Positions 16,954-34,976 of a stretch of DNA of 34,976 bases are shown in pieces. Under the pieces are notes generated by a model. The model was not told the DNA's origin. It saw only the letters and a list, made by a program, of their open reading frames with translations, and made no database searches. Each line of letters opens with the position of its first letter. Position 1 is the stretch's first letter. Origin of the DNA: a virus (lineage: Duplodnaviria; Heunggongvirae; Uroviricota; Caudoviricetes). The stretch lies in the IMG/VR virus record IMGVR_UViG_2548876698_000017; one strand, written 5' to 3'. Both the position numbers and the translations under genes were made by a program.

Positions 16954-17160
16954 ATGTGCATGGGTAGCTCACCATCAGTGCCTGCAACACCAGAAGTTCA
17001 GGCAGCACCACAGGAGCAGGATGCCGCCGTTGTTGATGCCCGCGACGAAGAAACACGTCGCCGTCGCGCTGCTGCTGGTCGTAGTTCTACGCTGCTTACC
17101 GGTTCTCAGGGCGACACATCAACCGCTAATACCAGCGGTAAAACGCTGCTTGGTCAGTAA
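16954..17160 (+). CDS. Small head-associated protein with N-terminal Met-Cys (T7 gp6.7-like position; tentative)
   Basis: 68-aa ORF (MCMGSSPSVPATPEV...), low complexity and Arg-rich; lies directly upstream of the portal gene and shares the initiation context GGAGTCATTGA-N-ATG with it. Confidence 0.45.
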   Translation: MCMGSSPSVPATPEVQAAPQEQDAAVVDARDEETRRRRAAAGRSSTLLTGSQGDTSTANTSGKTLLGQ

Positions 17161-17174
17161 CCGGAGTCATTGAA

Positions 17175-18854
17175 ATGGCGGAAACAACTAAAGAGCGATT
17201 GAACAAACAGTTCGCACAACTTGAAAGCGAGCGTCAGTCGTTCGAGCCGCACTGGCGCGAGTTGAGTGATTACATCAACCCGCGTGGTTCCCGCTTTCTG
17301 ACTTCTGAGGTCAACCGTAACGATCGACGCAATACACGCATTATTGATTCGACCGGGACTATGGCGGCGCGCACTCTCGCCAGCGGCATGATGTCAGGCA
17401 TCACAAGCCCCGCGCGTCCGTGGTTTCGCCTGGCTACGCCAGATCCTGAAATGATGGATTATGGCCCTGTTAAGTTGTGGCTTGAGGCGGTGCAGAACCG
17501 CATGAATGATATGTTCAATAAGTCGAATCTCTACCAGTCTCTTCCGCAGTTATACGGAAGCCTCGGCACATACAGCACTGGTGCAATGGCGGTGCTGGAG
17601 GATGACGAGGACATCATTCGCACAATGCCATTCCCGATAGGTAGTTACTACCTGGCTAACTCACCTCGTGGCAGTGTGGACACCTGTTTTCGCAAGTTCT
17701 CTATGACTGTTCGTCAGCTTGTTCAGGAGTTCGGGCTAAATAACGTCAGCGAATCCGTAAAAAGCATGTGGGAAATTGGCACCTACGAGAAGTGGATTGA
17801 GGTGATGCATTCGGTTTACCCGAACATTGACCGCGATACATCGAAGCTGGATAGCAAGAACAAGCCATTCAAATCGGTTTATTACGAGGTTGGCGGCGAT
17901 AACGACAAGTTGTTGCGTGAGTCCGGATTCGATGAGTTTCCAATTATGGCTCCGCGCTGGGAAGTTAACGGCGAAGATGTTTATGGATCATCATGCCCGG
18001 GTATGCTGGCGCTTGGACCTGTTAAGGCATTGCAGCTTCTTCAGAAGCGCAAGTCGCAGTTGATTGATAAAGCCACCAATCCGCCGATGGTTGCTCCGAC
18101 TTCCCTCAAGAATCAGCGCGCCTCCCTTCTTCCTGGCGACATCACGTATATCGATCAGATTACTGGTCAGGATGGTTTCAGGCCTGCTTATCTGGTTAAC
18201 CCCAGTACAGCAGATCTGGTAGCAGACATTCAGGACACTCGTCAAATCATTAACAGCGCCTACTTTGTCGATCTGTTCATGATGTTGCAGAACATCAATA
18301 CCCGCTCGATGCCTGTTGAAGCGGTGATCGAAATGAAAGAAGAAAAACTTCTGATGTTGGGGCCGGTTCTGGAGCGTCTGAACGACGAATGTCTTAATCC
18401 TCTCATTGACCGCGCTTTCTCGATGATGGTGCGTAAAAACATGCTGCCGCCACCGCCTGACGCGATGGAAGGCATGCCCCTGAAGGTCGAATACATTTCC
18501 GTCATGGCTCAGGCGCAGAAGTCTATCGGCCTGTCCAGTCTGGCGTCCACGGTTAACTTCATTGGTCAACTTGCGCAAGCGAAACCAGAAGCTCTCGACA
18601 AACTCAACGTTGATCAGGCGATCGATGCATTCGCTGATATGTCCGGAGTGTCTCCAACCGTCATTGTTCCGCAGGAACAGGTTGATCAGGCTCGCCAGCA
18701 ACGGGCACAGCAGCAACAGCAGCAACAAATGATGGCGATGGGGATGGCGGCGGCACAGGGTGCCAAGACGCTAAGCGAAGCTAAAACTTCGGATCCGAGT
18801 GTTTTGTCAGCTATGGCGAATGCAGTTAGTGGTCAGGGTGGGCAATCACAATGA
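17175..18854 (+). CDS. Portal (head-to-tail connector) protein, T7 gp8-like
   Basis: 559-aa ORF directly after the terminase/moron block; C-terminal Gln/Ala/Met-rich tail (QQRAQQQQQQQMMAMGMAAAQGA) resembles the T7-type connector C-terminus; followed by scaffold and capsid genes. Confidence 0.8.
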   Translation: MAETTKERLNKQFAQLESERQSFEPHWRELSDYINPRGSRFLTSEVNRNDRRNTRIIDSTGTMAARTLASGMMSGITSPARPWFRLATPDPEMMDYGPVKLWLEAVQNRMNDMFNKSNLYQSLPQLYGSLGTYSTGAMAVLEDDEDIIRTMPFPIGSYYLANSPRGSVDTCFRKFSMTVRQLVQEFGLNNVSESVKSMWEIGTYEKWIEVMHSVYPNIDRDTSKLDSKNKPFKSVYYEVGGDNDKLLRESGFDEFPIMAPRWEVNGEDVYGSSCPGMLALGPVKALQLLQKRKSQLIDKATNPPMVAPTSLKNQRASLLPGDITYIDQITGQDGFRPAYLVNPSTADLVADIQDTRQIINSAYFVDLFMMLQNINTRSMPVEAVIEMKEEKLLMLGPVLERLNDECLNPLIDRAFSMMVRKNMLPPPPDAMEGMPLKVEYISVMAQAQKSIGLSSLASTVNFIGQLAQAKPEALDKLNVDQAIDAFADMSGVSPTVIVPQEQVDQARQQRAQQQQQQQMMAMGMAAAQGAKTLSEAKTSDPSVLSAMANAVSGQGGQSQ

Positions 18855-19147
18855 CAGATTACGAAGACGATCAACTGAAAGAAGAAAACGCCCGTAAGCA
18901 ACGTGACATGGCACAGCGTGAAATTGATGACATTCGCTTTGTCATGAGCAGTGAACAGGGGCGTCGCGTTGTCTGGTCTGTGCTGGAGAAAGGCCGGGTG
19001 TTTTCCGCTATCTCTCCGATGGATGCTATGGCAATGGCATTTAATGAGGGGCAACGCAATCTGGCGCTGGAACTGTTTCAGCGCGTTATGGCTCATTGCC
19101 CTGAACAGTATTTGAAGATGGCCAAAGAGGCCAGTGAACAGGAGTGA
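18851..19147 (+). CDS. Hypothetical head-assembly protein
   Basis: 98-aa ORF between portal and scaffold; overlaps the portal stop. Confidence 0.45.
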   Translation: MTDYEDDQLKEENARKQRDMAQREIDDIRFVMSSEQGRRVVWSVLEKGRVFSAISPMDAMAMAFNEGQRNLALELFQRVMAHCPEQYLKMAKEASEQE

Positions 19148-19149
19148 TC

Positions 19150-19845
19150 ATGAATTTATTTGAGCGTTTGCTGTATCGCCGTCTTTGCAATGAGCAACCA
19201 GTCGATGGTGGAGCAGCTCCGGCTGCGTCAGAACCGTCAGCGCCTGCAGGTGATAACCCTGCTCCAGTTGGTGATCCATCACAACAGGAAGGTGATAAGC
19301 CACAACCTGTTGCTGATGGCGATAAACCTGCTGATGACAAAAAGCCTGAAAACGATAAGCAGGATGAAAAAAAGGACGGCGATAAACCAGAGGGTGCGCC
19401 TGAGAAGTACGAGTTTCAGGCTGCCGAAGGCGTAGAGCTGGATACAGAAGCGTTGAAGGAGTTCGAGCCGGTGGCGCGAGAACTTAACCTGACCAACGAG
19501 CAAGCGAAAAAGCTGGTTGATGTTTATCCGAAGATTCTGGCAGGTGTGCAGCAGCGCCAGGCAGAAGCCTGGCAGAAAACAACCGAGCAGTGGGCTGCTG
19601 ATGTAAAAGCTGACAAAGAAATCGGTGGCGACAAGTTGATTTCTAACCTTAGCGCCGCACAGCGTGCGCTTGACCAGTTCGGGACACCTGAACTCAAAGA
19701 ATATCTGAACACCACCGGACTGGGTAATCACCCTGATCTGGTCAAAACGTTCGTGAAAATCGGAAAGGCGATGTCTGAAGATGGCATGGTCACCGGTGGT
19801 AATGAAGGCCAGCGTAGTGCGGCCGAAGTGCTCTATGGCAAATAA
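19150..19845 (+). CDS. Scaffolding protein (acidic, low-complexity N-terminus)
   Basis: ATG at 19150 with AGGAG 6 nt upstream; Pro/Asp/Lys-rich N-terminal segment and helical C-terminal region; sits between portal and major capsid gene. Confidence 0.6.
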   Translation: MNLFERLLYRRLCNEQPVDGGAAPAASEPSAPAGDNPAPVGDPSQQEGDKPQPVADGDKPADDKKPENDKQDEKKDGDKPEGAPEKYEFQAAEGVELDTEALKEFEPVARELNLTNEQAKKLVDVYPKILAGVQQRQAEAWQKTTEQWAADVKADKEIGGDKLISNLSAAQRALDQFGTPELKEYLNTTGLGNHPDLVKTFVKIGKAMSEDGMVTGGNEGQRSAAEVLYGK

Positions 19846-19859
19846 GAGAGGAAATGACA

Positions 19860-20846
19860 ATGGCTGTTAAAGGCTTAACTGCGCTAACGCTGGCTGACTG
19901 GGGTAAGCGCGTCGATCCAAACGGGAAAGTCGATAAGATTATCGAGCTTCTCGGTCAAACTAACCCGATCCTTCAGGATATGCCTTTTGTCGAAGGGAAC
20001 CTTCCTACCGGACACCGAACCACCATTCGTTCTGGTTTACCTTCAGCTACCTGGCGTTTGCTGAACTATGGCGTACAGCCAAGCAAATCAACCACAGTGC
20101 AGGTAACCGATTCCGTTGGCATGCTGGAAACCTATGCTGAAGTCGATAAGTCACTGGCTGATCTGAACGGCAATACCGCCGAATTCCGCCTGTCTGAAGA
20201 CCGCGCATTTATTGAAGCGATGAATCAGCAGATGGCGCAGACGCTGTTTTATGGTGATTCCAGCGTTAACCCTCAGCAGTTTATGGGACTGTCCTCCCGC
20301 TATTCCAGCCTGTCTGCAGGTAATGCTCAGAACATCATTGATGCTGGTGGCACGGGTACAGATAACACCTCAATCTGGTTAGTGGTGTGGGGCGAAAACA
20401 CAGTGCATGGCATCTTCCCGAAAGGGCAGAAGGCTGGCATTCAGATGGAAGATAAAGGCCAGGTGACACTGGAAGATGCTAATGGCGGCAAGTACGAAGG
20501 CTACCGTACCCATTACAAATGGGACAACGGACTTGCTCTGCGTGACTGGCGTTATGTTGTTCGCATTGCAAACATCGATGTCAGCAATCTTTCAGAACCT
20601 TCCTCTGCCGCAAATATTGCGAAGTTGATGGTTAAAGCACTGCATCGCATTCCAAATCGTGGCATGGGTCGCCCGGTGTTCTACATGAACCGCACTGTAG
20701 GCCAGGCTCTTGATCTGCAATCTCTGGAGAAAACATCTCTGGCGATCAGCGTAAAAGAGACAGAAGGCGAGTGGTGGACTTCATTCCGTGGTGTACCAAT
20801 CCGTGAAACTGATGCGCTTCTGGAAACAGAAGCCCGCGTGGTGTAA
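19860..20846 (+). CDS. Major capsid protein
   Basis: ATG at 19860 (MAVKGLTAL...) with AGAGAGGA RBS; about 330 aa, directly after the scaffold gene and followed by a stem-loop at 20863-20882. Confidence 0.75.
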   Translation: MAVKGLTALTLADWGKRVDPNGKVDKIIELLGQTNPILQDMPFVEGNLPTGHRTTIRSGLPSATWRLLNYGVQPSKSTTVQVTDSVGMLETYAEVDKSLADLNGNTAEFRLSEDRAFIEAMNQQMAQTLFYGDSSVNPQQFMGLSSRYSSLSAGNAQNIIDAGGTGTDNTSIWLVVWGENTVHGIFPKGQKAGIQMEDKGQVTLEDANGGKYEGYRTHYKWDNGLALRDWRYVVRIANIDVSNLSEPSSAANIAKLMVKALHRIPNRGMGRPVFYMNRTVGQALDLQSLEKTSLAISVKETEGEWWTSFRGVPIRETDALLETEARVV

Positions 20847-20897: not shown

Positions 20898-21335
20898 ATG
20901 ATCACCGACAAACTGTTGATGTTCTCCGAAGCTCAGGCGGTTACGAATACCGCGGCTTCTACTGACGTAATCGATCTCGGTCCAATTGATGGAAACCGTC
21001 GCGATATCGGTGTGGGTTACCCGCTTGAGTTTTGGGTGCTGGTTAACGAAGCCGCCACGGCAAGTGGTGAGGCAACTGTAAACATCCAGTTGCAGACGAG
21101 TGAGAATAACAGCTCTTGGACCACTATTTATGATAGTGGTGCGTTGGCAAAGGCCACCCTGACAGCAGGTAAGCGAGTTGTTTCTGCAAAGGTGCCAGCC
21201 GGTGTTCAGCGATATCTGCGTGTTAACTACTCCGTCGCAACTGGCCCACTAACGGCCGGCAAATTCACTGCGGGTATCAGTCTGGATGTTGATGCCAATA
21301 CGCCGTACCCGATCCGCTCAAAAGTAACTGGTTAA
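20898..21335 (+). CDS. Candidate capsid decoration/stabilisation protein
   Basis: 145-aa Thr/Ala/Val-rich ORF immediately after the major capsid gene; assignment by position only. Confidence 0.35.
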   Translation: MITDKLLMFSEAQAVTNTAASTDVIDLGPIDGNRRDIGVGYPLEFWVLVNEAATASGEATVNIQLQTSENNSSWTTIYDSGALAKATLTAGKRVVSAKVPAGVQRYLRVNYSVATGPLTAGKFTAGISLDVDANTPYPIRSKVTG

Positions 21336-21345
21336 GGTGATATCG

Positions 21346-21681
21346 ATGTCAGGTGAGAAACCAAGATACCGCGTTCTGCGCCTCTCTCATATCCATAACA
21401 CTCTGTGGCCGGAGGGGGCAGAAATCGAATACGAAGGTGAGCCTGGTAGCGCACTGGAACCTGTTAACGATGCAGCCAGACAGGCAAAAGCAAAAGTTGC
21501 AGGAAAGGTGTCAATGGCAGCAACCAGCACCAAAATCATCAACGATGTGTCAGATGATGGTGAACTGGATAAGCTCCGTGAAGAGTACGAATTGCTCTTT
21601 AACGAGAAGCCACACCATAACGCCAAAGCCGAAACGCTCCGCGAGAAGATCGCAGATAAGCGTAAAGAACTGGGCGTGTAA
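21346..21681 (+). CDS. Hypothetical virion/assembly protein
   Basis: ATG at 21346 (MSGEKPRYRVL...) with AAGGTGA RBS; followed by an intrinsic terminator at 21699-21719. Confidence 0.4.
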   Translation: MSGEKPRYRVLRLSHIHNTLWPEGAEIEYEGEPGSALEPVNDAARQAKAKVAGKVSMAATSTKIINDVSDDGELDKLREEYELLFNEKPHHNAKAETLREKIADKRKELGV

Positions 21682-21719: not shown

Positions 21720-21731
21720 GCAGGAGTGTAT

Positions 21732-22055
21732 ATGGAACTCGTAAACCTCAAAACCGGCACTGACAGCTACCAGGATGAGAGCGGAGAAACCAGAACTCGC
21801 GATGAATACCCGTGGGGGCTGTGCATCACGCTGAATAACGACACATTGAATAAGCTGAAGGCGCAACCTAAGGGCGTCGGAACAGAAGTGATGATAACTG
21901 CAAAGGCTGTTATTCGAGGCCTGTCAGCCAGAGAAACTGACGATGGCGTTAATCGCAGCGCCGATCTGCAGATCACTGATATGGCGATCGCTCCTGTTTC
22001 CGGGGATGTAGAAAAATCAGCGGCTGAAACTCTGTACGGTAACGGAGGTGAGTGA
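21732..22055 (+). CDS. Hypothetical virion protein
   Basis: ATG at 21732 (MELVNLKTG...) with CAGGAG RBS; stop overlaps next start. Confidence 0.4.
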   Translation: MELVNLKTGTDSYQDESGETRTRDEYPWGLCITLNNDTLNKLKAQPKGVGTEVMITAKAVIRGLSARETDDGVNRSADLQITDMAIAPVSGDVEKSAAETLYGNGGE

Positions 22056-22660
22056 TGGCCTCTGTAGTAGAGATCTGTAATCGTGCGCTGTCCAATATTG
22101 GCAATAGCCGCAGCATTAACAGCCTGACGGAAGCCAGCAAGGAAGCGGGGGAATGTTCGCTGCACTTTGAGGCCTGCCGTGATGCTGTGCTTTCTGATTT
22201 TGACTGGAACTTTGCTACCAAACGCGTGGCGCTTGCAGATACGAGCAATCCACCGCCTGACTGGGAATATGCGTACCAGTACCCGTCCGATTGTCTGCGC
22301 ATTACTGAAATTATGCTTCCTGGTGTACGCAATCCAGCAGCACCAATGCGCGTTCAGTACGAAGTTGGTGCAGACACCAACGGAACAGGAAAGTTGATCT
22401 ACACAGACCAGCCTCAGGCATGGCTCAAGTATGTCTCTCGCGTTACAGATGTGAACATGTTTGATGCCATTTTTATGGAGGCGTTGGCCTGGCGTCTTGC
22501 GGCAGCTATTAACATGGCGCTGACTGGGAATGCAGACCTCGGTACGTTTGCCCTCAATATGTACAATCGCGTGATTCTTAGTGCTGGCTCGCATAGCCAG
22601 AATGAATCACAGGAACCACAGCCACCGGTTGACGAGTTTACCATTGCGAGGTTGTCCTGA
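22055..22660 (+). CDS. Tail adaptor / tail tubular protein A-like (T7 gp11-like; tentative)
   Basis: ATG at 22055 with GGAGG 6 nt upstream; N-terminal EICNRALSNIGNSRSINSL pattern resembles gp11-type adaptors; position before a large gp12-like ORF. Confidence 0.5.
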   Translation: MASVVEICNRALSNIGNSRSINSLTEASKEAGECSLHFEACRDAVLSDFDWNFATKRVALADTSNPPPDWEYAYQYPSDCLRITEIMLPGVRNPAAPMRVQYEVGADTNGTGKLIYTDQPQAWLKYVSRVTDVNMFDAIFMEALAWRLAAAINMALTGNADLGTFALNMYNRVILSAGSHSQNESQEPQPPVDEFTIARLS

Positions 22661-25131
22661 TGGCTATCAGTTGGATCCAGCCCAGCTTTGCCGGTGGTGA
22701 GATTGGACCATCGTTGTATGGTCGTATCGACATGGCGAAGTACCAGGTGGCATTGCGCAAGTGCGATAACTTTATCGTGCGGCAGTATGGCGGCGTTGAG
22801 AATCGACCTGGTACGCGTTTTGTTGGTGCCGCCAAATACCCAAATCGGAAATGCCGCCTGATCCCGTTCCAGTTCTCGACGGTTCAGACCTATGCTCTGG
22901 AGTTCGGACACCAGTACATGCGCGTTATCAAAGATGGTGCGTTGGTGCTGAACAGCAGCAATGTTATTTATGAAATTGCCACGCCATATACTGAAGCTGA
23001 TCTGTTCCGAATTAAATTCACGCAAAGCGCTGACGTGCTTACGCTGGTTCACCCGGAATACCCGCCGAAAGAGTTGCGGCGCTATGCGCATGACAACTGG
23101 CAACTTGTTGATGTGGTAACGAAGAACGGGCCATTTGAAGATATCAATATTGACGAGTCAGTGACGGTTTATGCCAGCGCCAGCACCGGGACAATTACGT
23201 TAACGGCAAACGCCTCTATTTTTGGCGCGGAGCAGGTAGGCAAATTGTTCTATCTGGAACAGCCTGCAGTGGATTCAGTGCCGGTATGGGAAACCAGTAA
23301 GAGTACGTCGATTGGCGATATTCGCCGTGCAGACAGTAACTACTATCGCGCCGTTACAGCAGGCAAAACAGGCACTTTGCGCCCTTCTCATACAGAAGGC
23401 ACATCATGGGATGGCTGGGGCGGATCCGGTGATGATGATACCGGCATTGAGTGGGAGTATCTGCACAGTGGTTTTGGCATTGCCCGTATCTCTGCTGCAA
23501 ATGGAACTACTGCAACTGCCGAGGTGATTTCCTATATCCCTTCGCAGGTCGTTGGCGAGGATAATGCCAGCTATAAATGGGCTAAATATGCCTGGAACAG
23601 TGTTAATGGTTATCCTGGCACTGTTGTTTATTATCAACAACGTCTTTACTTCGCCGCATCGACTGCGTTCCCTCAGACTATCTGGGCCAGCCGTACTGGT
23701 GATTATAAGGATTTTGGCAAAAGCAATCCTACGCAGGATGACGACAGAATTATCTACACCTATGCCGGGCGTCAGGTTAATGAGATCCGCCACCTGATTG
23801 ATGTTGGTTCGCTGGTGGCGCTGACTTCCGGAGGTGAGTACGTCATCACTGGAGACCAGAACAAAGTGCTTACCCCATCATCATTTGCATTCAGCTCTCA
23901 GGGATCAAATGGCTCGAGCAATGTCCCACCAATTGCCGTGGCGAATATTGCTCTGTTCGTCCAGGAGAAAGGCAGTGTTGTCCGTGATCTGGCCTACTCA
24001 TTCGATGTTGACGGCTATCAGGGGAACGACCTTACTATCCTTGCCAATCATCTTTTTCAGAAGCACAGCATTGTTGACTGGTGCTTCTCGATAGTCCCTT
24101 ACTCCAGCGCCTTCTGCATCCGTGATGACGGTAAATTACTGGTGATGACCTATTTGCGTGATCAGCAGGTTTTTGCATGGGCACCACAATCCAGTACCGG
24201 AAAATATGAAAGCACATGCAGTATCAGCGAAGGCAATGAAGATGCGGTGTATTTCGTCGTTAACAGAACCGTTAACGGGCAAACAGTGAGATACATCGAG
24301 AGACTGTCCAGCCGTTTATTTACCAGCGATGAAGATGCTTTCTTTGTTGATTCTGGCCTTAGCTATGATGGAAGAAATACGTCTGACAGAACGATGACCA
24401 TCACTGGTGGTTCTGGCGAATGGGATTATCGCGCGGAATATACAATCAGTGTTTCTGGTGGTGCGTACTTCACCAGTAGTGATGTCGGCGCGCAACTACA
24501 GTTCCCTTATGCCGGAACTGATCCTGGTACTGGCGATGAAGTGTCAAAAGAATTACGTTGCGACATTATTTCTGTAACCAGCAATACCGCTGTAGTGGTT
24601 CGTGCCAACAGGAACGTCCCGCCATCCCTCAGGAATGCGGCCACCATGAACTGGCAGATGGCGCGCCGGACATTTGGAGGCCTGTCTCATCTTGAAGGCC
24701 AGACCGTAAACATTCTCTCTGATGCGAACGTGGAACCACAGAAAGTGGTTTCCGGAGGTGCCGTCACGCTGGAATCACCGGGGGCTGTAGTGCACATCGG
24801 CCTGCCAATAACTGCTGAATTCGAAACACTGGATATCAACATTAACGGACAGGAAACGCTGCTGGACAAAAAACAGGTGATCCCGTCCGTTACTCTGGTT
24901 GTGAATGCCAGCCGCGGCATCTGGGCGACTACGCCAGGCGGTAAATGGTACGAATATCCACAGCGTGAATTCGAGTTCTACGATGATCCTGTTGATGACG
25001 CTACCGGAAAAGTAGAAGTGAAACTGGACAGTAACTGGGGCAAAAACGGACGTGTAAGAATCCGTCAGCTTGACCCGTTGCCGCTGTCTGTTCTTGCCGT
25101 TATTCCTCGCCTTACTGTTGGGGGATTTTGA
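22660..25131 (+). CDS. Tail nozzle / tail tubular protein B-like (T7 gp12-like; tentative)
   Basis: 823-aa ORF following the adaptor-like gene; size and order match podovirus nozzle proteins. Confidence 0.5.
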   Translation: MAISWIQPSFAGGEIGPSLYGRIDMAKYQVALRKCDNFIVRQYGGVENRPGTRFVGAAKYPNRKCRLIPFQFSTVQTYALEFGHQYMRVIKDGALVLNSSNVIYEIATPYTEADLFRIKFTQSADVLTLVHPEYPPKELRRYAHDNWQLVDVVTKNGPFEDINIDESVTVYASASTGTITLTANASIFGAEQVGKLFYLEQPAVDSVPVWETSKSTSIGDIRRADSNYYRAVTAGKTGTLRPSHTEGTSWDGWGGSGDDDTGIEWEYLHSGFGIARISAANGTTATAEVISYIPSQVVGEDNASYKWAKYAWNSVNGYPGTVVYYQQRLYFAASTAFPQTIWASRTGDYKDFGKSNPTQDDDRIIYTYAGRQVNEIRHLIDVGSLVALTSGGEYVITGDQNKVLTPSSFAFSSQGSNGSSNVPPIAVANIALFVQEKGSVVRDLAYSFDVDGYQGNDLTILANHLFQKHSIVDWCFSIVPYSSAFCIRDDGKLLVMTYLRDQQVFAWAPQSSTGKYESTCSISEGNEDAVYFVVNRTVNGQTVRYIERLSSRLFTSDEDAFFVDSGLSYDGRNTSDRTMTITGGSGEWDYRAEYTISVSGGAYFTSSDVGAQLQFPYAGTDPGTGDEVSKELRCDIISVTSNTAVVVRANRNVPPSLRNAATMNWQMARRTFGGLSHLEGQTVNILSDANVEPQKVVSGGAVTLESPGAVVHIGLPITAEFETLDININGQETLLDKKQVIPSVTLVVNASRGIWATTPGGKWYEYPQREFEFYDDPVDDATGKVEVKLDSNWGKNGRVRIRQLDPLPLSVLAVIPRLTVGGF

Positions 25132-25595
25132 TGATCGACGTTAAAATTATTCCCGCTACCGAAGAGCATCTTCAGATGATTTTGCCGGATGTTCGTCAGG
25201 CTGATATTGACGAACTGTATGCAGTATCACTGATGACTACCGAAGATGCGCTACGTGTTGGTCTTCGCACTGCGACTATGGCCTGGTCAGGGTTCGCGAA
25301 CGGAGAACTGGTAACCATGTTTGGTGTATCTCCGGCGTCAATGATCGGTGGCAATGGTACGCCCTGGCTGGTAGGAACCAGCCGTATTGAAAAATATCAG
25401 AAGACATTTCTTCGCCACTGCCGCCCTGTATTGCAGCAGATGCTGGCAGTTTATCCGCGCCTGGAAAACTACGTCGACGAGCGAAACCATGTTGCCAAAG
25501 CATGGCTGCACTGGCTTGGATTCAGGCTTGAAGAAGCCGCGCCTTATGGTGCTCTTGGTCTTAATTTCCACAGATTTCACATGGAGAGAAAATAA
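25131..25595 (+). CDS. Internal virion/assembly protein (gp13-like position)
   Basis: ATG at 25131 (MIDVKIIPA...) overlapping the previous stop as TGATG; assignment by synteny. Confidence 0.4.
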   Translation: MIDVKIIPATEEHLQMILPDVRQADIDELYAVSLMTTEDALRVGLRTATMAWSGFANGELVTMFGVSPASMIGGNGTPWLVGTSRIEKYQKTFLRHCRPVLQQMLAVYPRLENYVDERNHVAKAWLHWLGFRLEEAAPYGALGLNFHRFHMERK

Positions 25596-26140
25596 TGTGC
25601 GATCCGGTTATTGCTGGTGGCGCAATGCTCGCCATGAGTGGCATTCAGGCATACACCCAGTACCAACAGGGAAAGTATGCCTCGAAGGTTGCAGAAGCGA
25701 ACGCAGATATAGCCACAGCTCAGGCAAATGATGCAATAAACAGAGGTAACGCTGAAGCTGAGCAACGACGCAGAGAGACCCGACAGCGGCTTGGTACACA
25801 GGCGGCGACAATGGGGGCTACCGGCGCTGATTTATCTACAGGTAACGCGCTGGATATATTTGGCGACACTGCCCAGTTTGGCGCTCTTGATTCGCTGACG
25901 ACGGTGAATAACGCGCAACGCGAGGCTTACGGTTATCAGGTTCAGGCTGCCAACTATAAAGCAGAAGCCAGTTCAGCCCGTAAACAGGGGAATGTGGGAG
26001 CAGCAACAACATTGCTCACTGCGCCTCTGAAGGCATACGGTGCGTACCAGATGTTTGGTGGGACGTGGAGTCCGTTTACTCAAAGCACTCCTGCGCCAAT
26101 CGGGGCAGCAGCAGGAACCAGATTACCCGGAGGATTATAA
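25595..26140 (+). CDS. Internal virion protein (gp14-like position)
   Basis: 181-aa Ala/Gln-rich ORF; start overlaps previous stop (TAATG); assignment by synteny. Confidence 0.5.
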   Translation: MCDPVIAGGAMLAMSGIQAYTQYQQGKYASKVAEANADIATAQANDAINRGNAEAEQRRRETRQRLGTQAATMGATGADLSTGNALDIFGDTAQFGALDSLTTVNNAQREAYGYQVQAANYKAEASSARKQGNVGAATTLLTAPLKAYGAYQMFGGTWSPFTQSTPAPIGAAAGTRLPGGL

Positions 26141-28653: not shown

Positions 28654-30452
28654 GTTACTTTGGCCTTAATCCAGTAAACCAGAATCAGCAGCTTGACGAA
28701 GCAGCATCAAATCCAGTTGGCTTTAACAGCGATGTTGGTTTTTTCGACAATGCTGTAGGAGCGGCATTGTCTGGTTTGTACTCCGGGCTGGTGGCAAAGC
28801 CAGATCAGTTGCTCTGGGCAGGGATGGATAAAATCGTATCCCCGATTGCTCAGTTTGTTAACGAAAACACCTCGCTCAATGACACTTCAGTTTCATACAT
28901 TGCCGAGCAGAGAAAACTAGCAGAGCAGCAGGTTAAGCGGCTGACGCCTGATGCCGCGACAACCGGAACCGCCGGGCAGGTTCTTTATGGGTTGTTCGAT
29001 ATGGGCGGGCAGGCTGTTATCGGTACAACGCTCGGTGGTCCGGTCGGAGGTGCTGCGGCGGTAACTTCGCTACAGGGTTTTTCTGAGTTTGAACGGCTGA
29101 CAGCACAGGGTGTTGATTTCAGGACGGCGCAGGAAGCGGGATTAGTGCAGGGTATTACTGCTGGTGCCGGAACACTGATCCCTATGAGCCTCGGGTTACG
29201 TGCTGGTGGTGCGCTGGCGGAAGGTGTGGCGGCTCAGCTTGCGCGGACGGGTGAAAGTTCAGTGCGACGCGCCGCAGCAACAGCAGTACGTGCAACGCCA
29301 GATATTGCCTATGCCGCAGGTACAAATATTGCGTTCGGTATGGCACAGCGTGGGCTTACTGCAAAAACGCTTCGTGATGGTGGCTATAGCGAAATGGCTA
29401 ACCAGTATGATGTGTTGGATCGACAGGCAATTGCTATTGATGCTGTTCTTGGGGTGGCGTTTGGTGGTGTCGGCAGATTTATTAACTCTCGCGGTGAGGC
29501 TACAAGCACCCCCAATTTTTCACCAGTTGATGTCGATGCGGCACTGGCGGCGAATGCCGCTCATCATGCTGAAATTGATATTTCTCCCGGCGTGCCGATC
29601 AACGTGCTTTCGCGCAATTCTCACATTCAGGCTCTGCGAAAAGCTATGTCTGATGTTAGCCAGGGGAGACCTGTAGACGTTGCCAGCATTGTTGAGTCTG
29701 CATCTTTCAGTGAAATTCCTGGGCGCAAGAGTCTGCTGTCTCAGGCAGTTAATGAGGCTCTGTCATCTGTAGATGATGGAGTAACGGCGCGCGCTATAGA
29801 AAATCGGTTGCTTGAAGAACAGGCCGCGCAGCTTTTGCCGCGTGGAGATAGACAGGTTTACCAGTCTGAAATCGCTAATAGCCAACGAATTATTGAAAAT
29901 CTCACTGAACAGCGTGCACAAATTCTTGCAGAAGAGCCAACCGGTAGCGGTAAAGCTTTGTCTCGTGCTCGATCAGATAAACAGGCCAGACTTCGCGATA
30001 TTGACCAACGAATCCGGCAGGCACAAGAACGCCTGGAATTTTCTCGTAACGCGTTGGCACCGCATGAGCCTGGCGGTCAGTTTTTTGAAGCTCGAGCAGA
30101 ACTGGCTCGGAGACAGCAGGCAGAAAGTGAACTTAATGCTCAGGCTGTTTCATTCTATAAAACAGCAGAGGTCAGGACGCCAGACGAAGTAGCTCCTTTT
30201 GAGCCCGGTAAGATATTGCAACAGACAGAACAAAAAATGATGGCAGATCCGGCAGGAGATATTGATCTGCGTATAGCTGAAGACTCGCTGCTTGAATCTC
30301 CGGACATGATAATCACCGTGCTGGATGATGATGGTAATCCACAATCGCGCAGTGCGCGTGAAGTACTGGATGAAGCGAACAGGGAAAGTGAGCAGGCAAT
30401 ACAGGATTCCAGCCTGTTTGATGTTGCTGTGGCGTGTTTCTTGAGAGGTTAA
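28650..30452 (+). CDS. Internal virion/ejection protein
   Basis: 600-aa Ala/Gly-rich ORF overlapping the previous stop; assignment by synteny. Confidence 0.5.
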   Translation: MSYFGLNPVNQNQQLDEAASNPVGFNSDVGFFDNAVGAALSGLYSGLVAKPDQLLWAGMDKIVSPIAQFVNENTSLNDTSVSYIAEQRKLAEQQVKRLTPDAATTGTAGQVLYGLFDMGGQAVIGTTLGGPVGGAAAVTSLQGFSEFERLTAQGVDFRTAQEAGLVQGITAGAGTLIPMSLGLRAGGALAEGVAAQLARTGESSVRRAAATAVRATPDIAYAAGTNIAFGMAQRGLTAKTLRDGGYSEMANQYDVLDRQAIAIDAVLGVAFGGVGRFINSRGEATSTPNFSPVDVDAALAANAAHHAEIDISPGVPINVLSRNSHIQALRKAMSDVSQGRPVDVASIVESASFSEIPGRKSLLSQAVNEALSSVDDGVTARAIENRLLEEQAAQLLPRGDRQVYQSEIANSQRIIENLTEQRAQILAEEPTGSGKALSRARSDKQARLRDIDQRIRQAQERLEFSRNALAPHEPGGQFFEARAELARRQQAESELNAQAVSFYKTAEVRTPDEVAPFEPGKILQQTEQKMMADPAGDIDLRIAEDSLLESPDMIITVLDDDGNPQSRSAREVLDEANRESEQAIQDSSLFDVAVACFLRG

Positions 30453-30457
30453 ATTAA

Positions 30458-32932
30458 ATGAGACAGGAATGTATACAAGCGGTCCAGCAGGCGGCGCAGC
30501 GCACGTTAACGGCGCGAGAAATACAGAACATTGAAGACCGCATTTATCGAAATATGCGCTCCATTGCTCGTGATGACCCGATGTCGTGGCGACAACTTTC
30601 CGAATCAGAACGGTTGTATCGTGCAGCACAATTGGCATCTGAAGAATTACAGCGAGAAGCGGCATTAAAGAAACGTCGTGTGGCCCTCACTATAGCCGCA
30701 CGTCAGAGATTGGATAAATTTATCAATAGCTATCAAGGGGCTGATGGGAAACTTGGCGCTCTTAACCGTACTATTGCTTTTAATGCAGACGGTAAATCGA
30801 ATTTCCTCTCTGTTGAATCCAGAACAAAAGCCACTCGTGATTATGCATTGAGTCAATTGCAGGAGGCATTTGAAGCAGTTGATCCTCGCTTTTTTGGCCT
30901 GTTTGAAGATGAAGCGGGCGTGCGTGACCTGGTATATGAAATGCGAGGGCAAAATACTGGCAATGCTAAAGCAAGAAAAGGTGCTAAGGCGTGGAGAGAA
31001 GTGACAGATCTACTGCGCCGCCGGTTTAATGATGCTGGTGGGGACATTGGCTATCTCGAAAACTGGGGGATCCCTCAACATCATTCTATGGAAAAGGTTG
31101 GGGCGGTATCAAAAGATAAATGGGTTAGCGATGTTATAGGTAAGCTGGATCGCAAATATTATACCCGAGCCGATGGACAACTGATGAACGATGCCGAGTT
31201 GTCTGCATTTCTTGGAGAGGCTTATAACACGATCGCTACTGGTGGGCTGAATAAGCTTACTGATACCGGAATGCGAATTTCCGGCGTACGTGCTAACCGT
31301 GGTAATGCATCACGACAGATACATTTCAAAGATGCAGATTCCTATCTGCAATATCAGCAACTTTATGGCGATCGCTCTCTATGGGAAATCATGGTCGGTC
31401 ACCTGGAAGGTATCAGTAAAGATATTGCGCTGGTGGAAACATATGGCCCAAACCCCGATCATGTTTTCCGCTCTCTTCTTGATCAGGTTAAGGCAGAAAC
31501 GGCAACAGCTAACCCGAGTAAAACCGGTAGCGTCGAGCGTCTGGCGAACAAAACAGAGAACTTGTACAACTTTATTTCCGGAAAAACACAGCCTGTAGCG
31601 AATCCGCACATCGCGCGATGGTCTGACAATATCCGCAACTGGCTGGTTGCCAGCAGACTCGGATCCGCGTTGCTGTCATCGTTCTCTGATCTTGGAACCA
31701 TGTATCTGTCTGCGAAGGTTACCAACCTTCCAATGAACCAGTTATTTCGCAACCAGCTTGAAGCTATGGACCCAACGAACCGTACTGAGCTTGCGCGGGC
31801 GCGCCGCGCTGGCCTGGCGATGGAATCTCTACTTGGCAGCGTTAACCGCTGGGCGATGGATAATATGGGGCCGTCTGTGTCTCGTTGGGCGGCAACGGCG
31901 GTAATGCGTGCCAGTGGGCTTACAGCATGGTCAGGTGCGCACAAGCGCGCCTATGGCGTAACCATGATGGGAAGCCTGGGAGAAGTAGTGTCACGGACAC
32001 CAGACCTTCGTAGCCTCGATGACTCTGATTTTCGTATCCTGAAAAGTAAAGGGATTACTGACACAGACTGGAGCGTATGGAAGCTGGCGCAACAGGAGGA
32101 CTGGGGGAACGGTAATAATACGATGCTGACACCGGAAAGCATTATGCGTATCCCTGATTCAGCAGTTAAACATCTTGGTGAGCCTGAACGCGTGAAATTT
32201 GAGGCAATGCGTAAACTGCTCGGTGCCGTAACTGAAGAAGTTGATATGGCTGTTATTACACCGGGAGCACGTGAGCAACTGATAACCGGTTCTGGTATTC
32301 AGCGTGGAACATGGAAAGGTGAATTAACGAGAAGTGTTTTCCTGTTTAAATCGTTCCCTATCTCGGTTGTTATGCGTCACTGGTCACGCGCTATGGGTAT
32401 GCCGTCTGCTGGTGGGCGTGCGGCATATATTGCGACGTTTATTGCCAGTACGACCATTCTTGGCGCTTTGTCGCAGCAACTTAACGACCTTGCGTCTGGT
32501 CGTAATCCTCGAGAGATGACAGGAGAAGATGCCGCAAAATTCTGGCTTGGTGCTCTACTGAAAGGTGGTGGTCTTGGCCTTTACGGTGACTTTTTATTGT
32601 CAGATCACACTAGGTACGGAAGCGGCGCGCTGGCGTCGATGCTTGGCCCGGTAGCTGGTCTGGTTGATGACGTAGTGAAGATTGCTCAGGGCATACCGTT
32701 AAATGCTGTGGAAGGGAAGAGTGAGCAGACTGGTGGTGATCTGGTGAAGCTGGGGAAAGGTTTGATGCCTGGTGCGAATCTCTGGTACTTGAAGGCGGCT
32801 CTCGATCACATGATCTTTAACCAGATGCAGGAGTATTTTTCACCAGGCTATTTGCGTAAAATGGAGCAACGTTCGAAGAAAGAGTTTAACCAGACATACT
32901 GGTGGCGACCTCAGGATGTCACTCCGCAATAA
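30458..32932 (+). CDS. Internal virion/ejection protein (large)
   Basis: 824-aa ORF; last of three consecutive large ORFs before the tailspike; assignment by synteny. Confidence 0.5.
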   Translation: MRQECIQAVQQAAQRTLTAREIQNIEDRIYRNMRSIARDDPMSWRQLSESERLYRAAQLASEELQREAALKKRRVALTIAARQRLDKFINSYQGADGKLGALNRTIAFNADGKSNFLSVESRTKATRDYALSQLQEAFEAVDPRFFGLFEDEAGVRDLVYEMRGQNTGNAKARKGAKAWREVTDLLRRRFNDAGGDIGYLENWGIPQHHSMEKVGAVSKDKWVSDVIGKLDRKYYTRADGQLMNDAELSAFLGEAYNTIATGGLNKLTDTGMRISGVRANRGNASRQIHFKDADSYLQYQQLYGDRSLWEIMVGHLEGISKDIALVETYGPNPDHVFRSLLDQVKAETATANPSKTGSVERLANKTENLYNFISGKTQPVANPHIARWSDNIRNWLVASRLGSALLSSFSDLGTMYLSAKVTNLPMNQLFRNQLEAMDPTNRTELARARRAGLAMESLLGSVNRWAMDNMGPSVSRWAATAVMRASGLTAWSGAHKRAYGVTMMGSLGEVVSRTPDLRSLDDSDFRILKSKGITDTDWSVWKLAQQEDWGNGNNTMLTPESIMRIPDSAVKHLGEPERVKFEAMRKLLGAVTEEVDMAVITPGAREQLITGSGIQRGTWKGELTRSVFLFKSFPISVVMRHWSRAMGMPSAGGRAAYIATFIASTTILGALSQQLNDLASGRNPREMTGEDAAKFWLGALLKGGGLGLYGDFLLSDHTRYGSGALASMLGPVAGLVDDVVKIAQGIPLNAVEGKSEQTGGDLVKLGKGLMPGANLWYLKAALDHMIFNQMQEYFSPGYLRKMEQRSKKEFNQTYWWRPQDVTPQ

Positions 32933-32941: not shown

Positions 32942-33115
32942 GTGTTTTTAATTATTTTGAGTGTGATAATTTCTGGTGGATTGTTATTTATTGACCGCTA
33001 CAAATATTTTCTTAACCCTCAGACTCAAGCTATTTGCTGGTTCATCTTTGTTGTGCAGGGAGTAGTTCTTGTTGCAAGCCTTATTGAGGGGAGGCCTCTT
33101 ATTTTTACTGGGTAA
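32942..33115 (+). CDS. Possible 57-aa hydrophobic ORF, not in the supplied ORF track
   Basis: GTG at 32942 preceded by AAGGAAG; predicted product VFLIILSVIISGGLLFIDRYKYFLNPQTQAICWFIFVVQGVVLVASLIEG... has two hydrophobic segments. Short and GTG-initiated, so uncertain. Confidence 0.25.
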   Translation: MFLIILSVIISGGLLFIDRYKYFLNPQTQAICWFIFVVQGVVLVASLIEGRPLIFTG

Positions 33116-33127
33116 ATAGGTGACTAC

Positions 33128-33424
33128 ATGCAAGCTATAGGATTCATTGTTTATATCGTCGTTGGTCTTTTTCAGTTGGCAGCAATTATGGCTGGGCTTG
33201 AATCATGGTGGGGATTGCACTGGATAATTGCAGCCCCCATTGCTTTCATCGTGAGCTATATTCCATTTGTTGGAGCGATTGTTGGTATGGTTGGCGCTGT
33301 GGATGTATGGCGGTGGGAGTGGTGGCAGGCTGGCCTTCTCTTCTTTGGTGGGATCATCTTTGCTATTGTCTGCGGTGGAATGTCATCATTTTTCGAATGG
33401 CTATCATTCAGAAAAGGGACGTGA
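33128..33424 (+). CDS. Small integral membrane protein with about three hydrophobic segments (holin-like or exclusion-type moron; function unknown)
   Basis: 98-aa ORF (MQAIGFIVYIVVGLFQLAAIMAGL...WIIAAPIAFIVSYIPFVGAIVGMVGAV...LLFFGGIIFAIVCGG); lies between ejection-protein genes and the tailspike; no adjacent endolysin. Confidence 0.5.
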   Translation: MQAIGFIVYIVVGLFQLAAIMAGLESWWGLHWIIAAPIAFIVSYIPFVGAIVGMVGAVDVWRWEWWQAGLLFFGGIIFAIVCGGMSSFFEWLSFRKGT

Positions 33425-33455
33425 CATGTCACAGGCCGCTTTCGCGGCCTTTTCT

Positions 33456-33713
33456 TTATGTGGTTTGTTTTCGTAATTGTTCGGCACAATAGTCGAGATG
33501 TGTTTGCAGATCCTGCATAGACATCTGTGAGCTGGTGACGTAGTTAATCAGTGCAGTCAGTTCGGCAAGTGGGCCATCGACATTAAATCCATCCTTATCG
33601 AGATCCCGGAGTAATTTCATCAAGTGCGATCCCTCCACCAGTGACCTGACGCCTCCCGGCGTGTGAATCCTTTCGGTAAATCCGTCTTCCAGTGGATAGT
33701 GATACTGCTGCAT
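33456..33713 (-). CDS. LexA-box-associated small protein (candidate SOS-induced antirepressor or other SOS moron)
   Basis: Listed ORF 33456..33731 starts at TTG; I prefer ATG at 33713 (MQQYHYPLEDG...) with GGAGAAG RBS. A near-consensus LexA box lies 22-37 bp upstream of that ATG. Confidence 0.55.
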   Translation of the reverse strand: MQQYHYPLEDGFTERIHTPGGVRSLVEGSHLMKLLRDLDKDGFNVDGPLAELTALINYVTSSQMSMQDLQTHLDYCAEQLRKQTT

Positions 33714-33732
33714 CTTATCTTCTCCATGCAAT

Positions 33733-33752
33733 AACTGTATAAATATACAGTA
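33733..33752. promoter_or_regulatory. LexA (SOS) box AACTGTATAAATATACAGTA
   Basis: CTGT-N8-ACAG with AT-rich spacer, close to the consensus TACTGTATATATATACAGTA; 22-37 bp upstream of the preferred ATG of the 33456..33713 minus-strand ORF. Confidence 0.8.
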
Positions 33753-33789
33753 TCAAATAATTTGTTTGCTATCCAGCACGTTTTGCGAA

Positions 33790-33804
33790 TCACCTGAAAG
33801 GTAA
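33790..33804. promoter_or_regulatory. Operator-like site TCACCTGAAAGGTAA (one mismatch; ACCTGAAAGGTAATA is shared with the 16849 site)
   Basis: Between the LexA-box gene (minus) and the tailspike gene (plus). Confidence 0.45.
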
Positions 33805-33908
33805 TATCTGTTCGTATTTATGGGTTATATATCCATATGTGGTTTTTCAGGTAATAGAATAACCGGATATGCGGCGCAACGGGTGCTGCGACTATCTGGA
33901 GATTTAAC

Positions 33909-34976
33909 ATGACGGTCTCAACCGAAGTTGACCACAACGAATACACCGGTAACGGTGTTACAACGACATTCCCTTATACCTTCAGGATTTTTAAGAAGTC
34001 TGATCTGGTAGTCCAGGTTGTAGACCTGAACGATAACATCACTGTTCTGACGCTAGATACTGACTACACAGTAACCGGCGCAGGTGGGTATGTAGGTGGT
34101 AATGTAATACTGGCAACAGCTCTTGCTAATGGTTACCAGATTTCCATATCACGTGAATTGCCGGTTACGCAGGAAACGGATCTCCGTAACCAGGGTAAGT
34201 TCTTTGCTGAGGTGCATGAGGATGCGCTTGATAAGTTGACAATGTTGATTCAGCAGGTTCGTAGTTGGTTTAGCCTGGCGCTACGTAAGCCGTCATTTGC
34301 TGCTAACTATTACGACGCAATGGACAACTATATTCGTAATCTTCGTGCCCCATCCAGGCCGAAAGACGCAGCAACGAAAGATTATGTTGATATTCTTTCT
34401 GGTGCCAGCCTAAGCAGAAGCTTGAGAGTACCTGAATCGTTTATAAATGAGTTACCTGATGCGGATGGGAGAAAGAATAAAACACTGAGTTTTGATAATT
34501 CTGGATCACCGCTTCTTCTTGATCCTGAAAGTAGTGGGTTATGGGGATATTCCCTTATTGATTCGTTTCAGGATGGTGCTTCAATAACAACTAGATTTCA
34601 GGCACTTCACTGGAAACGTCCTGATGGAAATGGCGAGTACTACCGTTGGGATGGATCTTTACCAAAAGATGTTCCTGAGAATTCAACCCCTGAATCAACA
34701 GGTGGGGTTTCCCTTGGTGCCTGGGTATCTGTAGGGGATGCATCGTTGCGGAGCGACCTGATTAGTCAAGAGACAGATAAAGGCTCCTCAATAGTTACAT
34801 ATACCCCTAAATTTAATGATGCCGTCTCGATGTCGGTATATGAAAAACTTTCTGTAGATTTGGTGACACTTTCAGACTACGGATTTAAAGTTGGCAACAC
34901 CGGTTCTCAGAACAAAGCGGCGTTTCAGAAGGCTATTGATGATGCTACGTTGCCAACTGAGATTGTTATACCAGAG
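33909..34976 (+). CDS. Tailspike protein, 3'-truncated by window end
   Basis: ATG at 33909 with GGAG RBS; open to the last base (356 codons, hence absent from the ORF track). N-terminus MTVSTEVDHNEYTGNGVTTTFPYTFRIFKKSDLVVQVVDLNDN... is consistent with a podovirus tailspike head-binding adaptor domain; assignment by pattern and by position after the ejection proteins. Confidence 0.8.
   Translation, partial: MTVSTEVDHNEYTGNGVTTTFPYTFRIFKKSDLVVQVVDLNDNITVLTLDTDYTVTGAGGYVGGNVILATALANGYQISISRELPVTQETDLRNQGKFFAEVHEDALDKLTMLIQQVRSWFSLALRKPSFAANYYDAMDNYIRNLRAPSRPKDAATKDYVDILSGASLSRSLRVPESFINELPDADGRKNKTLSFDNSGSPLLLDPESSGLWGYSLIDSFQDGASITTRFQALHWKRPDGNGEYYRWDGSLPKDVPENSTPESTGGVSLGAWVSVGDASLRSDLISQETDKGSSIVTYTPKFNDAVSMSVYEKLSVDLVTLSDYGFKVGNTGSQNKAAFQKAIDDATLPTEIVIPE

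Follow-up and report, generated by a model that had tools for sequence, protein, structure and literature searches.

A phiV10-like prophage of the Escherichia coli O26 lineage with a lambda-style early half and a T7-related portal, tail and ejection gene block

Introduction

When virion genes in T7-like order follow a lambda-like early region, is the sequence a hybrid, a pair of neighboring elements, or a phage type that is already known? This question is raised by the virus record IMGVR_UViG_2548876698_000017 of IMG/VR (Caudoviricetes), a stretch of 34,976 nucleotides that was analyzed over its full length and is here called the window. A first-pass annotation, made from the letters alone, described positions 16954-34976 (the late region) as a podovirus morphogenesis module in T7-like order joined to a lambdoid early region, and likened it to temperate podoviruses of the epsilon15/phiV10 type. 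Our comparisons identify the window, with a probability of about 0.95, as ~35 kb of a ~37-40 kb prophage of the epsilon15/phiV10 group, genus Uetakevirus, temperate short-tailed phages of Enterobacteriaceae. The combination of a lambda-style lysogeny and replication half with a T7-related portal, tail and ejection block is the standard published layout of this genus. Thus, the two halves described as joined are both present, whereas the hybrid that this wording implies is simply the layout of the genus.

Results

Identity of the window

The late region was queried by megablast against 50,697 phage records and matched 43 of them, 10 of which cover at least 80% of the query. It is 98.1% identical to phiV10 across 94% of its length, so that the likeness to phages of this type proved correct. 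Taken together, phiV10, the O157 typing phages 9 and 10, phiv142-3, HEMP4, PAS61 and ZX5 share 97.5-98.2% identity over 89-95% of the region, and Enterobacter phage Tyrion and epsilon15 follow at 81% and 75%, respectively. The same phages cover 57-78% of the early half (1-16953) at 96-97% identity. Pieces of the early half match 654 phage records, including many Stx-converting phages; the matches to Synechococcus phages (64 records) are due solely to a tRNA-Arg gene that is 89.7% identical to the tRNA-Arg of S-RIM2.

In a direct alignment, the window is collinear with phiV10 after circular permutation, in the early and late halves alike, and ~86% of it aligns at ~97% identity. The first base of the window is the first base of the integrase gene and corresponds to phiV10 position 26927; window 13603-32935 corresponds to phiV10 1-19338 (98.0% DNA identity), and 33456-34391 to phiV10 20543-21478, with 94.7% nucleotide identity over the stretch 33456-33731. 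All late open reading frames (ORFs) are equal in length to their phiV10 counterparts, and the GC content is even over the window (0.44-0.53). From the alignment, we estimate an overall similarity to phiV10 of ~83% over the window. The guideline of the International Committee on Taxonomy of Viruses for a genus is a genome-wide nucleotide similarity above ~70%, which this value exceeds; it falls short of the usual 95% line for a species. The genes follow the Uetakevirus order, from the integrase through the early genes, terS/terL, portal, tail and ejection genes to the tailspike, collinear with the annotations of phiV10 and epsilon15, and the gp7-family capsid protein and gp10-type staple that characterize the genus are both encoded (Pfam PF20911 and PF21628; PDB 3j40). 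We found no evidence that contradicts the phiV10-like identification.

At least 373 stretches in IMG/VR encode a relative of the window portal, which indicates that this phage type is common. All 80 loci returned by the IMG/VR portal scan were 99-100% identical and hence unusable for building profiles.

Prophage context

The last 2 kb of the window are 100% identical in 13 complete E. coli genomes, one of which, that of O26 strain RM10386, was examined closely. In this genome, a related prophage sits between guaA and yfgI; it is 98.0% identical to the window at 1-1240, 99.8% at 2508-9882 and 99.85% at 12939-34976, with no long alignment at 1241-2507 and 9883-12938. The RM10386 prophage has an exact copy of ATTGAGTGGGAATGATT at either end, the copies being 37.2 kb apart, and this sequence has been published as the att core of phiV10, epsilon15 and ZX5, reported to be the same in epsilon15, with integration at the 3' end of guaA (PMC9782041). 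The core is not found in the window because the window begins at the integrase start codon and the core lies upstream of int. The window encodes a P4-type tyrosine integrase (1..1251, + strand; Pfam Arm-DNA-bind_3, Phage_int_M and Phage_integrase) that is 98.8% identical at the nucleotide level to phiV10 p31, and the att core flanks the related O26 prophage near guaA. We conclude that the window adds another member to the phiV10-like prophages of the E. coli O26 lineage.

To the right of the region covered by the window, the tailspike gene of the O26 relative runs to its end. Holin, endolysin and spanin genes are also found there, and the place of the phiV10 O-acetyltransferase gene oac is taken by gtrA and a truncated glycosyltransferase gene. 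The accessory region of this prophage contains pseudogene fragments.

Test of the T7-like gene order

Profiles were built from nine epsilon15-group phages (the window, epsilon15 and phages of Pseudomonas, Xanthomonas, Vibrio, Pelagibacter, Bordetella, Caulobacter and Acinetobacter) and from the T7 group (T7, SP6, phiKMV and P-SSP7), and all families were cross-compared by hhalign. Searches of 16 late proteins against T7 gp6.7-gp17 by BLASTP and phmmer returned nothing significant; thus, the relationship to T7 is ancient and is recovered by profile comparison only. In the profile comparison, the portal (17175..18854) matched the gp8-type portals of T7, SP6 and phiKMV (98.2% probability, E = 3.8e-14, 494 columns), the tail adaptor (22052..22660) matched gp11 (81%, E = 1.2e-5, 181 columns), the tail nozzle (22660..25131) matched gp12 (96.4%, E = 1.4e-9, the central 215 columns) and a 154-aa protein (25128..25595) matched gp13 (95.7%, E = 8.8e-9, 97 columns), all on the + strand. 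A 181-aa protein (25595..26140, +) aligned with gp14 over its full length (20.8%, E = 1e-3, 180 columns), and an 824-aa protein (30458..32932, +) matched gp16 weakly (4.6%, E = 9e-3, 362 columns). Because these six families best match the positionally equivalent T7-group families in the same order and all off-diagonal comparisons remained below 6% probability, the order is not due to chance. No T7 partner was found by hhalign for the capsid protein, the scaffold candidate, the small protein before the portal or the first two large proteins.

Independent searches agree with these assignments. The portal is of the T7 gp8 type (Pfam PF12236, 6.8e-187, 622 bits; PDB 8ck0_A, 2.4e-178), and the adaptor, a homolog of T7 gp11 or tubular tail protein A, matches the "Connector Protein" 8ck1_E (6.5e-26). 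Among solved structures, the portal, adaptor and nozzle of the window are closest to 8ck0 and 8ck1; we take the source of these entries and of 8cjz to be Cobetia phage Carin-1. For epsilon15 gp11, the RefSeq note cites an HHpred match to T7 3j4b_A. The nozzle, a homolog of T7 gp12 or tubular tail protein B, matches the "Tail Nozzle" 8ck1_A (1.3e-216; Hardies 2016, PMC4819975). The gp13-like protein is the internal virion protein A (IVP-A) with an acetyltransferase-like fold (phrog_308, "internal virion protein"), and the gp14-family core or ejection protein reaches 31.2 bits against a cut-off of 27 in Pfam PF24072 (T7_gp14), its RefSeq name in the O26 prophage being "virion core protein, T7 gp14 family". 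The portal, the gp11/gp12-like tail proteins and the gp13/14-like proteins named in the first-pass annotation are all borne out by these matches.

Three large proteins follow, all on the + strand. The first (26140..28653; PHROG 992/1044/7182) is an internal or ejection protein with an embedded muralytic domain at aa 249-398, which resembles the endolysin 7q47 (2.8e-17) and 9vvp_L (5.4e-38) in PDB. The second (28650..30452) belongs to the epsilon15 gp16 family (phrog_1145), its internal role being suggested by synteny, and the third, the 824-aa protein, to the epsilon15 gp17 family (phrog_684); Hardies 2016 (PMC4819975) places epsilon15 gp17 in IVP-D. Large proteins 2 and 3 have no Pfam or PDB match, and NCBIfam searches with ten late proteins gave no useful match. 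The 824-aa ORF is a homolog of epsilon15 gp17 and is not the tailspike. Of the three large internal proteins claimed earlier, all are thus present and fall into PHROG families, while their internal roles remain putative, with a weak link to gp16 and none detected to gp15.

The T7 relationship of the portal, tail and ejection genes of the epsilon15 group has already been published, and the epsilon15 terminase, with the capsid in the same pattern, groups with siphovirus counterparts (Hardies 2016, PMC4819975). Judged by these sequence profiles, the genes for the portal, tail and ejection proteins do stand in T7-like order, which is not a new observation. As a description of the whole late half, the earlier claim holds for the portal, gp11, gp12, gp13 and gp14 (gp16 weakly), whereas four extra genes in the capsid-adaptor part, a terminase upstream of the portal and a different capsid family set the module apart from T7. 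The order match from gp8 to gp16 is shared ancestry of one gene block, not membership in Autographiviridae. No protein matched tape-measure, tail-tube or sheath families in the searches run, so that the siphovirus or myovirus affinity that would have spoken against a podovirus was not found; together with the adaptor and nozzle genes, this suggests a short-tailed virion.

Alternative explanations

That the two halves are separate adjacent elements, a lambdoid remnant next to a podovirus remnant, might be suggested by the difference in sharing, 654 phage records for the early half and 43 for the late half. However, the halves meet at the same junction and in the same gene order in plaque-forming phiV10, PAS61, ZX5, phiv142-3 and epsilon15, one pair of att cores flanks the two halves together in the 37.2-kb O26 prophage, the GC content is even, and a single integrase was found in the window. 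Given an arrangement shared with plaque-forming phiV10 and the att-bounded prophage, the halves belong to one element, and we consider a pair of elements extremely improbable. Hardly more credible in our view is a recent, novel chimera of a lambdoid prophage and a lytic T7-like phage. It would account for true homology to the T7 portal and gp11-gp14, in T7 order, beside a lambda P homolog, but the empty BLASTP and phmmer comparisons with T7 proteins point to an ancient relationship, the terminase lies upstream and the capsid protein belongs to another sequence family than that of T7, and the same layout recurs in phages of diverse hosts, with portal relatives in the several hundred IMG/VR stretches counted above. 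A P22-like (Lederbergvirus) prophage deserves mention because P22 is the classic case of a short-tailed phage with lambdoid early genes and is distantly related to this group in its tail and ejection proteins (Hardies 2016, PMC4819975). Yet the families matched are PF12236 for the portal and PF20911 for the capsid protein, none of the portal or coat families of P22 being listed; genes for a portal, coat or tail needle of the P22 type were not found; and the nearest records listed, those of phiV10, epsilon15 and close relatives, include no P22-like phage. Almost no weight can be given to this assignment.

Several observations limit the detail of our identification of a phiV10-like Uetakevirus prophage. 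The window lacks att sites, the tailspike C-terminus, serotype-conversion genes and lysis genes. No complete E. coli genome (best ~82%) and no phage record (best ~78%) holds the whole early half, so that this exact mosaic stands as a separate variant. For the scaffold candidate, the 68-aa protein before the portal and the three large proteins, the roles are putative, being assigned from position, family labels and the literature on relatives, and hhalign gave no sequence link to T7 gp15 for large proteins 1 and 2. In addition, a prophage of this type could be defective in its host and not inducible. The pseudogene fragments and the truncated glycosyltransferase gene beside gtrA in the O26 relative, and the end of the window before the lysis genes, are compatible with such a defect, but, measured against phiV10, no late ORF is truncated and the genes for the integrase, repressor, replication proteins and terminase are of full length as well, and the O26 relative retains both att cores and the holin, endolysin and spanin genes; we therefore regard a defective prophage as unlikely.

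Cassette exchange relative to epsilon15

Within the phiV10-like identification, the cassette swaps relative to epsilon15 are the sole mildly new point. DNA similarity to epsilon15 spans 16848-19809 and 22044-27665 and resumes at 33421, leaving sharp gaps at 19810-22043 and 27666-33420. The proteins follow this pattern. Amino acid identity to epsilon15 is 94% for the large terminase subunit, 88% for the small protein before the portal, 81% for the portal and 75% for the scaffold candidate; it falls to 43% for the capsid protein, 36% for the Bbp16-like protein, 40% for the gp9-like protein and 43% for gp10, returns to 84% for the adaptor, 88% for the nozzle, 62% for the gp13-like protein, 78% for the gp14-like protein and 59% for large protein 1, and drops again to 32% and 28% for large proteins 2 and 3. 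The second gap takes in large proteins 2 and 3, the small membrane ORFs and, of large protein 1, the C-terminus. Both blocks are of lineages other than that of epsilon15, although the genes beside them share 74-94% identity with it.

The capsid protein of the window shares 62-63% identity with its counterpart in a BPP-1-type Bordetella phage and 56% with the capsid proteins of phages of Pseudomonas and Caulobacter, whereas the window portal is just 36-44% identical to the portals of these phages. This contrast, together with the sharp gaps, indicates that at least two cassettes were exchanged within the genus. A 2.2-kb capsid-shell cassette (19854-22055), consisting of the capsid, Bbp16, gp9-like and gp10 staple genes, has quite probably been exchanged as a unit, and the second swap comprises the distal ejection-protein genes (27666-33420). 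The phiV10-type capsid protein has 62% identity to the Bordetella protein but 42% to that of epsilon15, and the portal, scaffold candidate, adaptor and nozzle on either side of the cassette share 74-87% with epsilon15. The GenBank notes of phiV10 hint at such swaps by citing BcepC6B and BPP-1 as the best matches for swapped genes.

Terminase region and head genes

A small regulator homologous to epsilon15 gp49 and phiV10 p55 (13261..13602, +; phrog_536 "transcriptional regulator", 8e-55) precedes the small (13643..14317, +) and large (14314..15789, +) terminase subunits, which match the terminase pair PHROG 51 and PHROG 2, the large subunit being the homolog of epsilon15 gp2. A tRNA-Arg gene with the anticodon TCT follows on the - strand (16450..16526; ARAGORN; Rfam tRNA, 73.3 bits). 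The same tRNA is present, unannotated, in phiV10 at 2853-2929 (-), and epsilon15 lacks a tRNA. In phiV10, it overlaps the "hypothetical protein" p04 (2672-2923, +), which is thus probably a false gene call.

A packed train of + strand genes occupies 16954-33424, with a strong terminator just behind it (33433-33450). Position 16954 is the exact ATG of the 68-aa small protein (16954..17160, +) of the epsilon15 gp3 family (phrog_831, 2.4e-36; 88% identical to epsilon15 gp3), and 34976 is merely the end of the window. In the window, epsilon15, Vibrio phage and Acinetobacter phage, members of this family start with Met-Cys and end in K(T/N)LLG(Q/G), the window protein ending in KTLLGQ. A Met-Cys start is also found in T7 gp6.7, in gp14 of T7 and P-SSP7, and in gp14 of most epsilon15-group phages examined. 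The label "6.7-like" given to the small protein was positional only and is not upheld: in hhalign, just two residues, Met-Cys, aligned with T7 gp6.7, and the family did not match the gp7.3 set (T7 gp7.3, SP6 gp29 and phiKMV gp29). A likeness to gp7.3 that was noticed by eye in an RRRR-AAAG stretch found no support in hhalign either, and the 68-aa protein has no relative in PDB.

Downstream of the portal, the + strand encodes a small Bbp19-like protein (18851..19147; Pfam PF25181, 2.8e-17) and the scaffold candidate (19144..19845; phrog_458). The gene of the latter lies between the portal and capsid genes in 9/9 relatives used, and the N-terminal half of the protein is rich in Pro, Asp and Lys; position and composition thus suggest a scaffolding role. 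It is labeled "protease/peptidase" in PHROGs and RefSeq but has no match in Pfam, NCBIfam or PDB, so that this label lacks domain or motif support in these searches and looks like an inherited annotation. The major capsid protein (19854..20846, +) is of the epsilon15 gp7/BPP-1 family with the HK97 fold (Pfam PF20911, 2.1e-149) and matches the BPP-1 structure 3j4u (9.5e-129) better than epsilon15 gp7, 3j40 (2e-85). By hhalign, neither the capsid protein nor the scaffold candidate has a detectable sequence relation to T7 gp10 or gp9. The earlier description of a scaffold followed by a capsid gene therefore stands as to the capsid and the placement, the scaffold role being putative and neither gene being detectably related in sequence to its T7 namesake.

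The remaining genes of the shell cassette, all on the + strand, encode a Bbp16-family capsid cement protein (20898..21335; Pfam PF21190, 5.6e-49; so named by RefSeq in the O26 prophage), a conserved protein of the epsilon15 gp9 family (21337..21681; phrog_590) and the gp10-like capsid staple protein (21726..22055; Pfam PF21628, 7.3e-52). Thus, the genome encodes both a cement protein of the Bbp16 type, which decorates BPP-1 capsids, and a staple of the gp10 type, which decorates epsilon15 capsids.

Right end and tailspike

Two small hydrophobic membrane ORFs (32942-33115 and 33128-33424, +), recognized from their translations (phrog_3075), close the gene train. The terminator behind them, found by a terminator scan (+), consists of a 7-bp stem with 6 G-C pairs and a T-run. 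On the opposite strand lies a homolog of epsilon15 gp19 and phiV10 p24 (33456..33731, -; phrog_450, 7.5e-48), the product of which weakly resembles the C-terminal part of an antirepressor (phrog_1760, 4.3e-7).

As the first-pass annotation had it, a tailspike gene stands at the end, as a separate gene beyond the terminator (33909..34976, +); its first 356 codons are present and it is cut at the window end. Residues 1-129 match a PDB sequence group of tail fibers and tailspikes, 28lx_A, which includes a chain of 8ck1 (5.1e-25), and the Pfam domain Tail_spike_N (a TSP-type N domain) lies at aa 220-277. Similarity to phiV10 stops at 34391, at about codon 161. The conserved N-terminus and the divergence from this point on indicate a tailspike with a genus-typical anchor and a different receptor-binding part. 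In O26 genomes, the full gene, of 2622 bp, encodes a beta-helix protein of 873 aa (8399-11020 in the O26 locus). The O-antigen specificity may therefore differ from that of the O157-specific phiV10.

Early half

The early half was described as lambda-like with an integrase, RecET-type recombination, a repressor/cro pair and O/P-like replication, and much of this description is retained. On the - strand, RecT (3859..4740; Pfam RecT, 1.3e-31) and a RecE-like PD-(D/E)XK nuclease (4737..5558; Pfam DUF3799, 2.4e-22) confirm the recombination genes. The two are separate with a 4-base overlap, as in epsilon15, whereas phiV10 annotates one fused protein of 586 aa; the recE/recT region differs from phiV10 over window 4285-4462. 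A helix-turn-helix (HTH) repressor (6163..6747, -; Pfam HTH_3), positioned as the phiV10 p40/p41 pair, and a divergent cro-like gene (6902..7132, +) form an immunity pair (6163..7132). The replication genes encode an initiator with HTH_36 and DnaT domains (7499..8314, +; Pfam DnaT, 1.2e-15, and HTH_36, 1.8e-10) and a lambda P homolog (8296..9096, +; Pfam Phage_lambda_P PF06992, 1.7e-56). The initiator has no match to the lambda O family in Pfam, so that "O-like" holds as a functional analogy only, whereas the P homolog is genuine. No Q-type antiterminator was found among the ORFs scanned, which did not include 10835-11357 and 12990-13271. Thus, the lambda-like label holds for the organization of the early half and for several genes that are shared.

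Other Pfam matches in the early half are an MT-A70 methyltransferase, PerC, an AlpA-type regulator, DUF1064, Ead/Ea22 and DUF551; the epsilon15 homolog of the AlpA-type regulator is annotated as "excisionase and transcriptional regulator". The accessory genes are mosaic, and lambdoid and Stx phages have genes of the early half in common with the window. Compared with phiV10, the sequence departs in the accessory regions 1252-2507 and 9778-12965, save for two ~200-base matches at 10505-11075.

An AntA-type antirepressor (1283..1939, -; Pfam AntA, 4.5e-26), with an aaggagg motif ahead of its ATG at 1939, adjoins the integrase, unlike in phiV10. Its C-terminal part is related to the Bro-N antirepressor of phiV10, and 1273-1558 is 86.8% identical to phiV10 19540-19807. 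Immediately 5' of the AntA gene, on the same strand, is an Rfam sRNA-Xcc1 (RF02221; 1981-2070, -; 62.9 bits against a cut-off of 53). In phiV10, a C4 antisense RNA and IsrK lie 5' of the Bro-N gene, and this cassette sits between the gp17-like gene and the tailspike, where the window has the two small membrane ORFs. The different position and the different leader RNA indicate that the antirepressor cassette has moved and that its leader RNA has changed. In Pfam, the HTH domains alone of the repressor were matched, with no S24 peptidase match at E <= 0.001; a repressor with no match to an autocleavage domain and the presence of an antirepressor make derepression through the antirepressor likely, and lysogeny is probably relieved in this way.

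Discussion

The phages nearest to the window, phiV10 and its relatives phiv142-3, PAS61, ZX5, HEMP4 and TL-2011b, have the same gene order, tRNA-Arg(TCT) and tailspike N-terminal domain, and epsilon15, the type member of Uetakevirus, has the same architecture. The layout extends across phages of diverse hosts in the epsilon15-group set. The BPP-1 group (Rauchvirus) and Cobetia phage Carin-1 share the structural module, whereas their hosts and early regions differ; in the BPP-1-type phage, a single gene of very large size encodes the distal ejection proteins as a fusion, and the annotation lists no gp13-like gene.

The T7 group shares the portal, adaptor, nozzle, gp13 and gp14 (and weakly gp16) in the same order, followed by a receptor-binding protein. 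In contrast to the lytic T7 group, the window is temperate, with an integrase and a repressor, and no ORF of the size or family of a phage RNA polymerase or of T7-type replication genes was found in 1-16900, where most ORFs fall into other families and none matches a polymerase. The terminase lies upstream of the portal, compared with the right end of the genome, after the tail fiber, in the T7 group; the Bbp19-, Bbp16-, gp9- and gp10-like genes are extra; three large proteins stand against two; and the muralytic domain is part of the first large protein rather than of the gp16 N-terminus. With lambda and lambdoid phages, the window shares the order of integrase, recombination block, divergent repressor/cro, replication pair and accessory region, and with Stx phages the Ead/Ea22 and DUF551 genes. 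Unlike in lambda, the integrase is of the P4 type, and the lysis genes follow the tailspike in phiV10 and the O26 prophage rather than preceding the terminase. A CI-type repressor with S24 and a Q antiterminator, as expected of a lambdoid phage, were not found among the ORFs scanned, and the regulator of phrog_536 precedes the terminase.

By analogy with the epsilon15 and T7 literature, the gp7-type capsid protein would assemble around the scaffold on a dodecameric portal, and the staple and/or cement proteins would brace the shell. The published virion model of epsilon15 comprises a portal, an internal core, a tail hub and six tailspikes. Accordingly arranged, the adaptor and nozzle of the window would form a short tail hub, on which six tailspikes would dock through their conserved N-terminal domain, and the gp14-like protein and the three large proteins would be packaged as an internal core above the portal. 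Binding or cleavage of O-antigen by the tailspike is predicted to be followed by ejection of the core, which would then span the cell envelope as a channel, and the first large protein would cut peptidoglycan with its muralytic domain. Lysogeny would be established by integration at the 3' end of guaA and maintained by the repressor.

Beyond correct annotation, the significance of these findings is slight. Naming the window a phiV10-like Uetakevirus gives informative names to ~20 genes, many of which are "hypothetical protein" in RefSeq for the related prophage of Shiga toxin-producing E. coli O26, and the divergent tailspike might yield a new binder or depolymerase specific for an O-antigen. 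If the capsid-shell cassette has indeed been exchanged as a unit, this would mean that a shell set can be replaced in these phages while the portal, scaffold and tail stay as they are. The swaps relative to epsilon15 follow a well-known general principle; they are a tidy example of structural-module mosaicism and could guide capsid-swap engineering.

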